Part shown: piece after piece, positions 45,201 to 50,799 of the stretch
Layout of the letters: each line of letters begins with the position of its first letter
Numbering within the stretch: position 1 is the stretch's first letter
Assembly: GCF_022846255.1 (NCBI RefSeq)
Contig: NZ_AP025682.1
DNA from: Escherichia coli
Lineage (GTDB): Bacteria > Pseudomonadota > Gammaproteobacteria > Enterobacterales > Enterobacteriaceae
Reading direction: 5' to 3' (one strand)
DNA length: 64,000 bases
Position numbers: made by a program

Positions 45201-48200
45201 TCGCAACTCCGCCACTGTTTGTTTTGAAGCCTGACAAAAATACAAAAATAAGAATTAATCGTGTTGGTGGCAGTTTACCTACCGACCGGGAAAGTTTATT
45301 TATACTGAATGTTGCAGCATTACCAACGTTGGAAAATAGTCATTCGGTCAAAACTGATAATCAATTGCAAATAGCAGTCCGCAATCGTATGAAAATATTC
45401 TATCGGCCATCAAATTTGTCTGAAGACCCGAATGTGTCATATCAAAAATTACGCTGGGCACGAAAAAATGAAATTGTTACCGTTTATAATCCAGGCCCCA
45501 GATATGTGACACTCTATAACCTACATGTTGATGGTAAAGTTATAGATGGTGGTATGGTCGCACCATTTAGCCATCGCCAACAATCATGGTGTAAATCGCA
45601 AGGGGGTTGTGAAATAGCATGGCAGACATTGGATGTTTATAATAATGTTTTACCAATTTTGAAAGTAAAATTAAATCCTTCACAGTTGGATGTTACTGGC
45701 TTTGCATTTAGTCAATAATATATCTGAGGACATGATATGCGTATACATACTTATTGGTATAGAAGATATTTCATTTTATTGATTATTATATTTTCAAATG
45801 TTCTTTCTTCTATTGCTAATGCTGAAGATATGGGGCGAGAACGTGCATATTGTTATCCGGGTTCACCGAGTAATAATACTACGCCTGCATCCTTTTCTTA
45901 TAATTTTGGTACTATAGTGGTTTCTGATGTCAACAAAAATGCGCCTGGCACTGTATTGCCATCACAAATCTGGAAGGTTGGAACCTATAAGGCTTATTGT
46001 AATTCTCTTGATGATTATGAGATTTACTTCAGTGCTGTCTCTGGAATAGATCCGTCTGGTGCCAGTGGTGATCATCAAGGGAGTGATGTATTTATTCCAC
46101 TCACCCATGAAATATCTGTCTCTACTCATATAAAACTTTATAATAAAAATGGCACAATGACAGATAAAATTGTGCCATTCGAAAATTATAATACCAATTA
46201 TCCGGGGGACAGAAGCAAACCATCTAATTGGGCATCAGGTACTGAAGGATATATTAAAATCAGGATTGATAAAAAAATTATATCTGATGTTTCATTAAGT
46301 AACGTATTATTGGTGTCATTATATGTCAGCCAGATTCCTACCGAACATGGTCCTATCCCTGTCTTTAATGCCTACATAGGAAACTTAAATATTCAGGTTC
46401 CGCAAGGTTGCACAATTAATGAGGGTACGAGTTTTACTGTTAATATGCCGGATGTGTGGGCCAGTGAATTGAGCCGGGCTGGTGCCGGAGCGAAGCCCGC
46501 TGGTGTTACTCCTGTAGCAACAACTATTCCGATTAATTGTACGAATAAAAATACAGATGCGGTAATGACGTTGGTATTCGACGGTAACATTTCCGCCACA
46601 CGTGATACCAATGGGAAACAAAGTATTATTCAGGCACAAGATAATCCTGATGTTGGTATTATGATTATGGATAGTCAGCAAAACTCCGTAGATTTAAATG
46701 CCCTGGCAACATCAGTAGGCGTTCCGTTCAGATTGGTGGAAAACCAGGCTGCTTCTGCGCAAACTGCTGATGTTACTTTTCTGACTTTACCTGTTAGTAC
46801 AACTGGAAAAGTGCCTGCGGCAGGTCGTTATAATGCACTGGCTATATTGCGAGTGGAATATCAGTAATTTTTGAGCCAGTACAGAATCGGTTTAGCCATC
46901 ACCGCAAAATAAAATGCAATAATAGGGATAAACAGAATGTAAAACAAAAAAATATTTTTAATTCTACAGGGGAAAAACCTGGTGAAAAATGTAGGTTATG
47001 TGCCGATGAATAAAATGTTGCATTAAGCTGGATAATAAAAATGGAATTAGTTGATACGTTATTTGCAAGTCTCTCCGGTACTGATCCATTCACTGGTGTG
47101 GATATTACGATTGCCAACTGCAAATCAACATACTGGGATGAAGGCATTGTTCAGCAACTCATTAACCAGGTCCTGGATGAAGGGGAAAAGTTCGCCGGTG
47201 CTGCCGGTCTTGAGGGATTATCTCGATATGATGTCACATTAAATATTGGTTTAACGTCCAGCAATGTATGGCCGGGATTTTCCCTCGATACCGCCACCAT
47301 TAGCCGTCTTTGTGCCTGTGGTGCTGACTTTGGATTTGACCTCTATATCAGTGATGTACCAGATGTTCAATGTGATCTGAACACGACAAATGACTTCACC
47401 GTACAATTTACGGCGATGCTCAACCCGGATGAGCGGGTGATCATAGCAAAGCGTCCGCTTAAAAAATGTGACGCCTGGATTGAGGATGTTTATATCTTTC
47501 AGGTGTTTAAAGAAGCCTGGCAATTTCAAAACGGTAACAGTTTACGCGGATTTCGCGATAAGCAGGCTGAACTGAAACTCTACGCGCGTCATTACTCAGT
47601 GGAAAATTGCACAGAGGAAAGCTGTTGGGACTGTAATTATTGCATTCGGCCCAGCTTTTCCCTCTCTCGTAGTGCCATTATTCGCCTGAATGCGGCGAAT
47701 GCTCGTTTTGTCTATCAACCCTTTACACGCGATCAGCGGGCGAGGGGGTAATTATGCCCCCCACTCCTGCCATGCAGGCATTAATTGAGCAGATATATCA
47801 TATTTTTCGTCGTTATCCGGCGCCGAAGCAATTTGTGGTTTGTTGTGAATATTGTCTGAGTCAACAGGAACAAAAAGCATTACGGAATACATCGTTGCGA
47901 GCGATTCCTTATTCCTTAATCAATGCCTGGAATAGTAGTCCAGGACCTGATCCGCAAAACAGCGATGAGGTTCGTTATTTTCTGCCTCGTTTACTGGAGT
48001 TTGTTGCGCAGGGGCAATTTGACAATATTCACGAAGTATTTTCTCTACGGCGTATAAACCTTGCCAGTAAAGAAAACTGGCGTGAGGATGAACGGGAAAT
48101 ATTGCAGCAATTTGCTTACCAGTATATGACTGATTGGGTATCCGGGGATGAGGCTGTCGAATTACAGTACAAGCTGGAAATGTTTTTCCGTGCCGATATC

Positions 48201-50799
48201 GCTCTTTCGCCATTGCTTGATGCCATTATTTCAGTTCCCGGATTTTGGTCGGCAGCGTCTCTTGCCTGTTTATTGAATACGTATCGTGACGGTTATATCA
48301 GAGATAACCAGGACGATATCGATAAAGCCATTACCGCCCAAATCAATGCCTGGGCCTTCAACAATCAATCCATCCTGAAAGAACGCGCGCGGCAGGCGAT
48401 TGAGAACCCGCTTAAGCAGCCCGAACAGGGCACACAGTATCAGATCTGGGAAGACGACTGGATGATTGATGAGTGTTTATGCGCGATGTATGACGCATCA
48501 TCCGAATCACCAGGAAAATAAAAATGATTAAATTCCGGCTTTATATTCCCCCTGTAATTCTCGGTTTTGTTATCGTACCATTATTGGTATGGCCGACGGT
48601 TATTGCCTTAGCCGTACTTATATTCACGTTAACTTTTCTGGCGGAAATAATATTCTCCTTTCCGCTCCTGGTTGTGCGTATTTCTCTTCAGGAATTACAA
48701 CTTGAGTTATTGGTTGAATATGCACTTTTTTTCAGTGTAATGGGTGGCATCGGTTGGCAATTCTCCCGCAGAACGCCTCCTGAATTAAAAAACAGGCTAC
48801 ATTGCTGGCTGGTCTTTTCTCCGGTCTATTTCTGGTTAATTCTCTCGAATTTCATTCTTTATATTTCTCCAGAGAAATCAGCGTTGCTGGAAAATATCCG
48901 AAATTTCTTTCTGACATTTGTCTGGCTTCCCCTGAATTTTTCCCCTTTTTGGCCGCAGCCGTGGACTGATTTTGTCGGCCCGATTAGTGCCCAGCTTGGT
49001 TTTGCGTTGGGATATTATTGCCAGTGGCGTAGCAAAAATAGAAGCCATAGGAAGAAGTGGGGCGATTGGGTAACGTGCTTAAGTTTGGCGATTTTAGCTC
49101 TGGGGCCGTTATTCAATTATTTACAATGAATAGTCTAAGGAATTCAAATAGCCCGGTTGCACTTCACAACCGGGCATCATCCTTACGACGCCAGCGACAA
49201 CCTCTGCTGCGTATATTCCACCAGCCACTGACTCACACGAGATTGTTGATCCGCATTCAGCCACATGCCTTGTTTTGTGCGACGCCACAGGGCATCGTCG
49301 GCGCGGCGGACCCATTCGTGATCCACCAGGTATTTCAGCTCCGCTTCGTAGAACTCATGACCGAAATCTTCCCCGAGATCGCTTACCGTCCCCGCATTGC
49401 CGAGCAGCAACTCGCTGTTGCTGCCGTACGTGCGCGCGTAATGGCGTGCCAGCGATTCAGTCAGGAACGGATAGCGGCGGCGCAGGCGAGCGGCATAATC
49501 GTCGCGGTCGCCTTCAATGGCACCACCCGGCAGCACGCTCTCTTTCGTCCACGCCGGACCAATGCCCTGATAATATGGCGTCAGTTTTTCCAGCACGTGC
49601 TCCGCCAGTTTGCGGTAGGTGGTCAGCTTACCGCCGAATACCGACAGCAGCGGCGCTTTGCCGTTTTCATCATGGATATCAAGGGTGTAATCACGAGTGA
49701 TAGCCTGCGGCGAATCGGACTCATCATCACACAGCGGACGCACGCCGGAGTAAGTCCAGACGATATCGTCCCGGCTTAACTGCTTTTTAAAGTGCGTGTT
49801 ATACACTTTCAGCAGGTAATTGATTTCACTCTCTTCAATCTTCACTGCTTTTGGATCACCTTTGTATTCCACATCGGTAGTGCCGATGATGGAAAACTCG
49901 TCCATCCACGGGATCACGAAGACAATACGTTTATCTTCGTTTTGCAGAATGTAGGCCTGCTTTTGTGTATGAACGCGCGGCACGACAATATGGCTGCCTT
50001 TGATCAGGCGAATGCCATAAGGCGAAGGCAGATGCATCCCCTCGTCGAAGAACTGTTTCACCCACGGGCCGGTGGCATTAACCAGGCCGCGCGCCTGCCA
50101 TGTATATTTTTTGCCGGTATCGATATCTTCCGCTTCCACAATCCACAGGCCGTTTTCGCGGCGAGCAGAAGTGGCACGAGTCCGGGTAAGCACTTCACCG
50201 CCTTTACGCACCACCATCTGGGCGTTGGCGAGTACCAGACGGGCGTCGTCTACCCAACAGTCGGAATATTCGAATCCGCGCTTAATTTCCGGTTTTAATA
50301 CTGAATTTGCGCCAAAACGCAAACCGGTTGATCCCGGTAGGCTGGTGCGTTTACCCAGATGATCGTACATAAACAGACCAATGCGAATCATCCACGCCGG
50401 GCGCAGATGCGGGCGATGCGGCAGACGAAAACGCATCGGGAAGGCGATATGCGGGGCCATTTTCAGTAGCACTTCACGTTCAGCCAGCGCCTCGCTGACC
50501 AGGCGGAATTCATAGTGCTCAAGGTAGCGCAGGCCACCGTGAATGAGTTTTGAACTGGCGGAAGAGGTCGCGCAAGCGAGATCCTGCGCCTCCAGCATCA
50601 GCACGGATAAACCGCGTCCAGCGGCGTCTGCCGCGATACCAGCACCATTGATGCCGCCACCTATCACAATCAGATCTTTGGTTTCCATGCTGCCCTCATT
50701 CACTTTCGTTAAAGTTCATAAATGTTCGTTATCGAACATATTAGCAAAGAATCGCGCTTTGGGTAACATTGAAAAAACATTTTAGAGTGATATGTATAA

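Follow-up and report, generated by a model that had tools for sequence, protein, structure and literature searches.

DUF4279 proteins have been described as the FdL-Imm5 immunity family (PMC9424270), and a DUF4279 protein is the predicted immunity partner of the Rhs-Ntox33 effector of Salmonella salamae SPI-19 (PMC13304343). A DUF4279-like domain is also predicted in the product of the first of three adjacent genes, here called P1, P2 and P3, which lie in the glgP-glpD gap of a 64,000-nt stretch of Escherichia coli contig NZ_AP025682.1 (assembly GCF_022846255.1). "The window" denotes this whole stretch. The array to which the three genes belong is O-island 133 of O157:H7, listed as 'unknown' (PMC2907692), and this listing was all that turned up in the literature on yzgL, ybbD and the locus tags. 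A preliminary description of the window had presented P1-P3 as a compact three-gene operon. Comparison of the locus across strains indicates that they are instead the distal part of a strain-variable array of four or more genes and not a self-contained trio, and that the head gene and promoter of this array were lost to a fimbrial operon in the window lineage.

A strain-variable array between glgP and glpD

In the commonest E. coli layout, glgP is followed by a 502-aa 'PstS family' gene (PstS502, the head gene), P1, P2, P3 and glpD, with gaps of 14, 2 and 2 nt from PstS502 to P3 (comparison loci L007, L008 and L010). At least eight arrangements were found at glgP-glpD among the variants examined. 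Besides head-P1-P2-P3, the commonest in E. coli, we identified head-P2-P3 with a 3′ remnant of P1 (L004); the head, a lipoprotein copy of the binding domain and P3 (L002); the head, two small secreted proteins, a P1 remnant and P3 (L076); the head, four small secreted or lipoprotein genes, P1, P2′, P2 and P3 (L092); the head, a lipo-binding protein, two small genes and P1-P2-P3 (L107); one or two copies of the head followed by P1 and a YbbD_head lipoprotein (Salmonella-like contigs); the head and P1 only (L062); and, in other Enterobacteriaceae (L114, L115 and L118), the head with nothing else between glgP and glpD. P3 usually closes the array in E. coli, P2 is duplicated in tandem in L092 and L011, and each of P1, P2 and P3 is missing in some strains, with other cassettes substituting. 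The occurrence of each protein without the others does not fit an obligate form of the sensor or enzyme pair with a membrane partner that had been proposed. The array keeps to one site flanked by core metabolic genes, as a rule without an integrase or insertion sequence, and no nuclease, mobile-element or secretion genes were found in the annotated or open reading frame (ORF)-scanned variants of the locus.

The loss of the head gene in the window was located by blastn against L007. Homology to non-fimbrial alleles ended at 39215, just past the end of glgP, and restarted at 46955, which corresponds to L007:5915 and falls inside the PstS502 gene, whose end is at L007:5986. The remnant left in the window encodes QGKNLVKNVGYVPMNKMLH before its stop codon, compared with PstS502 C-termini ending in PQGQSLVEDVGYVPMYKTLH or QSLVEDVGYVPMYKTLH. 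These boundaries show that the fimbrial operon replaced the head gene together with its promoter and spared 19 codons. The same fimbrial junction was present in 554 of the 5426 complete E. coli genomes, Nissle 1917 among them. The TATAAT promoter of the array sits upstream of the lost head gene, and a consensus scan identified no promoter-like or terminator-like site within 46867-47041. Given that no such site separates the fimbrial tip gene from P1, read-through from the fimbrial operon would be the likeliest source of transcript. In L076 the fimbrial operon coexists with an intact head gene, suggesting that the fimbrial adjacency is an insertion accident.

K-12 has lost the array altogether. 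Its yzgL (L150, MG1655 3563724-3564005) consists of the first 74 codons of the head gene fused to DNA at and beyond the 3′ end of a P3 allele, and is a deletion scar of the whole array and not a decayed solute-binding gene. This scar is all that remains there, in keeping with the earlier statement that the locus is not part of the K-12 backbone.

P1-P3 had been placed exactly in coordinates, strand and length (Table 1): P1 stops at 47751 and P2 at 48521, and in both cases the next ATG comes after 2 nt. The strong Shine-Dalgarno sequences assigned to P2 and P3 were also seen (GAGGGGG and AGGAAA), and that of P1 is weak, GGAT only. The accessory nature of the region was borne out by its G+C content, 0.43-0.47 as against 0.51-0.57 in the flanks. 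In the window, the fimbrial operon stands upstream, followed by P1-P2-P3 and then by convergent glpD.

Table 1. Positions of features between glgP and glpD, numbered from the first nucleotide of the window
Feature	Position	Strand	Basis
Seven-gene chaperone-usher fimbrial operon	39702-46867	+	RefSeq annotation of L001 and window ORFs
PstS502 3′ remnant (19 codons and stop)	46967-47026	+	blastn and translation
P1	47041-47751	+	236-aa ORF, exact coordinates
P2	47754-48521	+	255-aa ORF, exact coordinates
P3	48524-49129	+	201-aa ORF, exact coordinates
glpD terminator (GC-rich palindromic hairpin and T-run, between convergent P3 and glpD)	49151-49175	-	

We further studied the conservation of the three genes. 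Megablast matched the region in 3910 of the 5426 complete E. coli genomes, 2278 of them with at least 80% query coverage, always on the chromosome and at a single site, and a tblastn search of plasmids with P1 and P2 returned only a mislabelled chromosome and weak Deinococcus matches. P1, P2 and P3 were intact in all complete genomes opened (L001, L007-L010, L148 and L149), and no stops were found in the seven alleles compared for the ratio of nonsynonymous to synonymous divergence (dN/dS). Pairwise dN/dS was 0.12-0.28 for P1, 0.16-0.37 for P2 and 0.19-0.57 for P3, against 0.02-0.11 for the flanking core gene glpD, and dS between alleles reached 0.3-0.9 (0.9 for P3), as against 0.1-0.2 for glpD. 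These values indicate that the alleles at the locus are old and that constraint is relaxed but clear. When divergent lineages of the fimbrial variant were compared, the corresponding polymorphism ratio (pN/pS) was 0.18-0.23 in P1 and P2, and P1-P3 were intact in all five fimbrial-variant genomes examined. Most metagenomic alleles were intact; L069, L071 and L081-L083 had a frameshifted P3 or a degraded P2. On this evidence P1, P2 and P3 are real genes under purifying selection, and the concern that most homologous loci might prove to hold pseudogenes is not borne out by the intact ORFs and dN/dS of 0.12-0.57.

Several further observations were made on cassettes and junctions. A 330-aa PstS-like lipoprotein in L002 (9053-10045) ends in YDASSESSGQ, compared with the P2 tail YDASSESPGK, and DNA homology of L002 begins 40 nt ahead of the P3 start. 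The shared tail indicates that the replacement of P1 and P2 kept the last ~38 nt before P3, the coupling region. Tandem head genes (500 and 468 aa) precede P1 and the YbbD_head gene in a Salmonella-like contig (L061, 2959-6000). The extra cassettes between the head and P1 (L092 5540-7277, L076 6537-7409 and L107 1914-2695) encode short products (97-154 aa), either secreted proteins or lipoproteins, that gave no NCBIfam or PDB match, and extra small secreted cassettes occurred in only 3 of the 5426 complete E. coli genomes. The initiation regions of P1 (47030-47043) and P3 (48513-48526) match at 13 of 14 nt (GGATAATAAAAATG and GGAAAATAAAAATG), which could be coincidental or mark a junction that recurs between cassettes; a repeat search found no other cassette-junction repeats, and no Rfam RNA was found at the locus.

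The fimbrial annotation was transferred to the window at +35040 from the RefSeq annotation of L001, a 99.8% identical locus. The operon encodes a major subunit, a chaperone, an usher, two minor subunits, a second chaperone and a 376-aa tip protein, with a G+C content of 0.30-0.45. Its tip gene (45737-46867) falls into sharply different allelic classes: the window/Nissle type and the L009/SF-166 types differ at ~40% of synonymous sites and in length (1131 and 1122 nt, respectively). The mechanical glpD ORF (49183-50703) has a GTG start (50703) five codons upstream of the RefSeq ATG (METKD..., 50688), an artefact of ORF listing.

The head gene and the three proteins

PstS502 has an N-terminal domain of ~210 residues with ~7 hydrophobic spans, here called the transmembrane domain (TMD), and beyond it a PBP_like_2 domain, matched in Pfam at E 2e-29. 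In the head gene and the lipoprotein cassette, the binding domain scored 119-125 bits with TIGR02136, under the cut-off of 206.6, and carries the invariant PstS-type anion-binding motifs GATA..P and RPxDSGSQT. We refer to genes of this build as TMD-PBP genes.

P3 is basic and hydrophobic (isoelectric point (pI) 9.4, grand average of hydropathy 0.70) with at least five hydrophobic spans, as expected of the polytopic membrane protein described before, and its homologues were found in Escherichia only. Comparison of the P3 and TMD-PBP families by hhalign gave a probability of 95.4% and E 1.7e-8 over 159 columns, the hidden Markov model matches between P3 and the TMD were reciprocal, and P3 and the head gene have a motif in common (...GPISAQLGFALGYYCQWR in P3 and ...IPVGSQLSFTLGYGW.R in the head gene). 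BLASTP of P3 against PstS502 found nothing, and the homology is visible only at profile level. At that level, P3 is identified as a paralogue of the PstS502 N-terminal membrane domain that is encoded as a separate protein.

P1 is acidic (pI 4.7) and cytosolic, with homologues in Escherichia, Salmonella and close relatives only. In its AlphaFold (AF2) model, residues 5-100 form a confident N-terminal domain with a predicted local distance difference test (pLDDT) score of 80-93. Foldseek searches of AFDB50 with this domain returned more than 20 DUF4279-labelled proteins, the strongest at E 7e-9 and most weaker than E 0.01. Stand-alone relatives of the domain, 100-130 aa long, showed 24-43% identity and TM(target) values of 0.69-0.87, and the closest by identity was a 106-aa DUF4279 protein of Salmonella salamae (43%). 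From the model, we assign the N-terminal ~100 residues to a predicted DUF4279-like alpha/beta fold (ferredoxin-like with a C-terminal extension). A deaminase reading of P1 was rejected: the Foldseek PDB matches, to deaminase folds, were at noise level (best E 0.3), and the H/CxE and PCxxC motifs are absent. The model does not extend to the C-terminal half, where pLDDT falls under 50 over the Cys region. The Cys motif, a possible zinc knuckle that the preliminary description had placed at the end of P1, is present (C190/C195/C198/C201) and is not terminal, as 35 more residues follow. C195, C198 and C201 occurred in nine of ten homologues and C190 in seven, while P0021 was without all four, and no Pfam zinc-finger match was found in P1.

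Some RefSeq alleles of P1 (L005/L007, 6001-6711) are labelled 'YbbD family protein'. Membership of that family (NF007301/PRK09781, PF26610) was also rejected: P1 scored 25-27 bits against a cut-off of 373, with residues 7-49 aligned to model positions 6-48. True YbbD_head proteins align to positions 44-181 of NF007301, and the seed of that model is probably a fusion of a P1 N-terminus with YbbD_head like that in L113. The K-12 pseudogene ybbD (ylbH-ybbD, L006 6950-7901) overlaps the last 20 nt of the orphan Rhs tip gene ylbH and codes for a YbbD_head domain with a membrane anchor. This is where an immunity gene would be expected; we found no discussion of this immunity-type arrangement in the literature searched.

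P2 is acidic (pI 4.6) and cytosolic, and the CCEYC and CLC motifs noted earlier were found as C30-C31-x-x-C34 and C241-L-C243. A HMMER search of 1.84 billion representatives identified 835 cluster representatives related to P2 at E<=1e-3, mostly of 240-260 aa, for which Pfam and NCBIfam offer no name. The related loci lie in Alpha- and Betaproteobacteria, Bacteroidota, a metagenome-assembled genome (MAG) of Chloroflexota, a contig labelled Oceanobacillus and Deinococcus plasmids. Conserved positions of the family are Y15, F18, C30, C34, L43, P78-R79 (FLPRxLEL motif), E113 and W200, and the P2 model has an all-alpha, solenoid-like fold (pLDDT 90, predicted template modelling score 0.90). No recurrent neighbour and no toxin was found near P2 relatives among 34 genome loci and 8 encoding contigs. 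Some relatives occur in tandem, and one lies among several small unannotated genes that follow a giant protein of the type IX secretion system. A Chitinophagaceae MAG (L030, 5810-8742) carries a two-gene unit in tandem, a ~200-aa signal-peptide protein with a P2-family gene 4 nt on. Both copies contain frameshifts, in the signal-peptide gene of copy 1 and in the P2-family gene of the other; no other sign of a recurrent partner was seen for any P2 relative.

Searches of Pfam (proteins and family alignments), NCBIfam, PHROGs and PDB sequence profiles with P1-P3 gave nothing usable, which upholds the earlier remark that none of the three resembles a nameable family. The PADLOC-DB models gave 0 families for P1, P2 or P3 at E<=1, PHROG matches were at noise level only, and P1-P3 showed no sign of nuclease, ATPase, NTPase or sensor domains. 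The small secreted cassettes, P2 and P3 gave no match to recognised immunity families. The likeness of array members to immunity families consists of the fold-level resemblance of P1 to DUF4279 and the position of YbbD_head only.

Possible functions of the array

We tentatively favour reading the locus as a beheaded array whose P1-P3 are independently acting, immunity-like binding proteins, and we judge this combination of anatomy and function to fall a little short of probable. The complete array would begin with a conserved head of ~500 aa, a ~7-span membrane domain fused to a periplasmic PstS-like binding domain. In the window, P1-P3 would be expressed by read-through from the fimbrial operon and translated with coupling across the 2-nt gaps, and their products would be protective or binding proteins of the polymorphic-toxin 'immunity' type, each dispensable by itself, and would not form a single machine. 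The DUF4279-like domain of P1 would bind its partner, P2 would bind through the surface of its helical solenoid, and P3 would act within the inner membrane. This mechanism, with both read-through expression and individually dispensable immunity-type proteins, we put forward at low confidence and regard as doubtful. The presence and absence of cassettes, the tandem paralogues (L092 and L011), the occurrence of small proteins in both cytosol and periplasm and the deep alleles point towards immunity, as does the YbbD_head cassette, whose K-12 namesake ybbD directly follows ylbH. The preliminary description had suggested a defence, toxin-immunity or signalling module; its toxin-immunity part agrees with the predicted role of the fold class of P1 (PMC9424270, PMC13304343), while phage defence found no support.

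A number of results weigh against immunity-like cassettes. Neither P1 nor 10 members of its family matched PF14106 (DUF4279) in Pfam at E<=0.1, and the sole DUF4279 record, for the homologue P0022, is a precomputed 'faint' hit. The P1 model is confident in the first ~100 residues only, and Foldseek against the PDB found nothing significant and did not match the CdiI structure. The strict linkage of P1 is to the binding-protein gene and not to a toxin, which suits a functional partnership better than immunity. No toxin gene or fragment and no PAAR, VgrG, Rhs or CdiA element was found at the locus in any variant examined, and the relatives of P2 are mostly solitary beside housekeeping genes (murJ, uvrB, der and smpB), with no toxin neighbours. 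The read-through transcription is inferred from the consensus scan only.

The linkage of P1 leads to an alternative that we consider unlikely on balance, in which P1, P2 and P3 are accessory subunits of an envelope complex around the membrane-anchored PstS-like protein, and are headless and partly orphaned in the window. The periplasmic domain would bind an oxyanion-type ligand, the TMD and P3 would span the membrane, and P1 and P2 would be cytosolic partners relaying or using the signal, possibly dependent on metal or redox state via their Cys clusters. Such a complex would agree with the position of P1, which immediately follows a TMD-PBP gene of ~500 aa in all the non-fimbrial contexts seen, down to 49% identity (E. 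coli, Salmonella and other enterics), and with the recurrence of the TMD-PBP, P1 and P2 trio at 50% identity in another enteric contig. The gaps of 2-14 nt suggest co-translation, and the homology of P3 to the TMD and the invariance of the anion-binding motifs fit as well. However, any one of P1, P2 and P3 may be missing from an otherwise intact array, the head occurs alone in other genera, and P1-P3 are intact and constrained in 554 genomes without the head gene. Moreover, P2 has relatives in other phyla without a TMD-PBP neighbour, distant membrane-anchored binding-protein genes have no P1, P2 or P3 beside them, and the locus contains no ABC permease or ATPase, kinase or regulator gene.

We also considered whether P1-P3 might be remnants of a beheaded operon, silent or expressed as noise at most: unrelated passengers in a recombination hot spot that have no function here and are heading for loss as in K-12. 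The window has lost the promoter and the head gene and offers no promoter-like site upstream of P1, the whole array has been deleted in K-12, the metagenomic alleles mentioned above carry frameshifted P3 or degraded P2, and dN/dS of the three genes is several-fold above that of glpD. All of this would be expected of decay, but the ORFs are intact in five of five fimbrial-variant genomes with the low pN/pS of P1 and P2, the Shine-Dalgarno sequences and 2-nt junctions have been kept, no terminator separates the fimbrial operon from P1-P3, and the arrangement is retained in 554 genomes. We regard this explanation as improbable, though one to be taken seriously.

Anti-phage defence, or an accessory or regulatory role for the fimbriae, suggested by an accessory island of low G+C content with unfamiliar proteins directly after a fimbrial operon, is very improbable, since no PADLOC model matches P1-P3, PHROG matches are noise, nuclease, ATPase, NTPase and sensor domains were not detected, the trio stands without the fimbrial operon in about three quarters of its carriers (2278 versus 554) and the fimbrial operon of L076 coexists with an intact head gene, so that the adjacency is accidental. 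A location in a defence island, which the preliminary description had named as a point to check, found no backing either, as the locus showed no PADLOC match and no toxin, nuclease or mobile-element gene, and the fimbrial-accessory role that the preliminary description had also raised is not borne out by the genome counts, which show no consistent linkage.

Altogether, we rank the reading of P1-P3 as immunity-like cassettes slightly above that of a membrane complex. A wider formulation would take the locus as a hitherto undescribed type of cassette array with a membrane-anchored, oxyanion-binding head, a P3 tail and, between them, small cytosolic (P1 and P2) and periplasmic proteins that strains exchange and that serve either as immunity to toxins or as adaptors in a new envelope-sensing complex, with P2 founding a family; in this full form the proposal is speculative and, we think, rather unlikely. 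If it were true, P2 would be the founding member of a phylum-spanning family without a Pfam entry, comprising more than 800 clusters at 50% identity and marked by C-x(2,3)-CC and FLPRxLEL.

Significance and comparison with known systems

About 70% of complete E. coli genomes have the locus, among them O157:H7 (O-island 133), extraintestinal pathogenic E. coli and Nissle 1917, and the libraries searched assign no function to it. Its build as a modular array explains both the K-12 pseudogene yzgL and the misleading RefSeq label 'YbbD family protein', and the P2 family and the TMD/P3 membrane domain, both unnamed, merit family definitions. The gain lies in better annotation of yzgL, the 'YbbD family' label and O-island 133 and in a testable lead; support for a new mechanism is thin.

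Like PstS of the PstSCAB system, the head gene and the lipoprotein cassette have a PBP_like_2 domain with motifs of the anion-binding type. Unlike PstS, they score under the TIGR02136 cut-off, and their binding domain is joined to a ~7-span TMD in the head and forms a lipoprotein in the cassette. There are no pstCAB genes next to them, and an obvious Pho box upstream is lacking. No permease or ATPase genes were found beside the binding protein in any variant.

P1 shares with DUF4279/FdL-Imm5 the alpha/beta fold class with its C-terminal extension, its best stand-alone relatives being 36-43% identical, and it is likewise a small acidic cytosolic protein in a variable array. It differs in falling below the Pfam threshold, in having an extra Cys-rich half of ~135 residues, in lacking a match to CdiI, and in its neighbour, which is always a membrane-anchored binding-protein gene and never a toxin. 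The helical-repeat adaptor folds (ENTH/VHS and HEAT/TOG) are also among the closest known systems.

The array as a whole compares with the orphan immunity arrays of Rhs, contact-dependent growth inhibition and type VI secretion loci, such as rhsD-ybbC-ylbH-ybbD in K-12. It is unlike them in that no toxin, toxin tip or secretion gene occurs anywhere in the locus, and in that a binding-protein gene stands at one end of it and, at the other, a paralogue of the membrane domain of this gene. The array resembles them in its co-oriented, tightly packed genes, in the swapping of cassettes and the tandem paralogues, in the mixture of cytosolic proteins and lipoproteins and in the depth of its alleles, and it shares the YbbD_head cassette with the Rhs orphan region of K-12.

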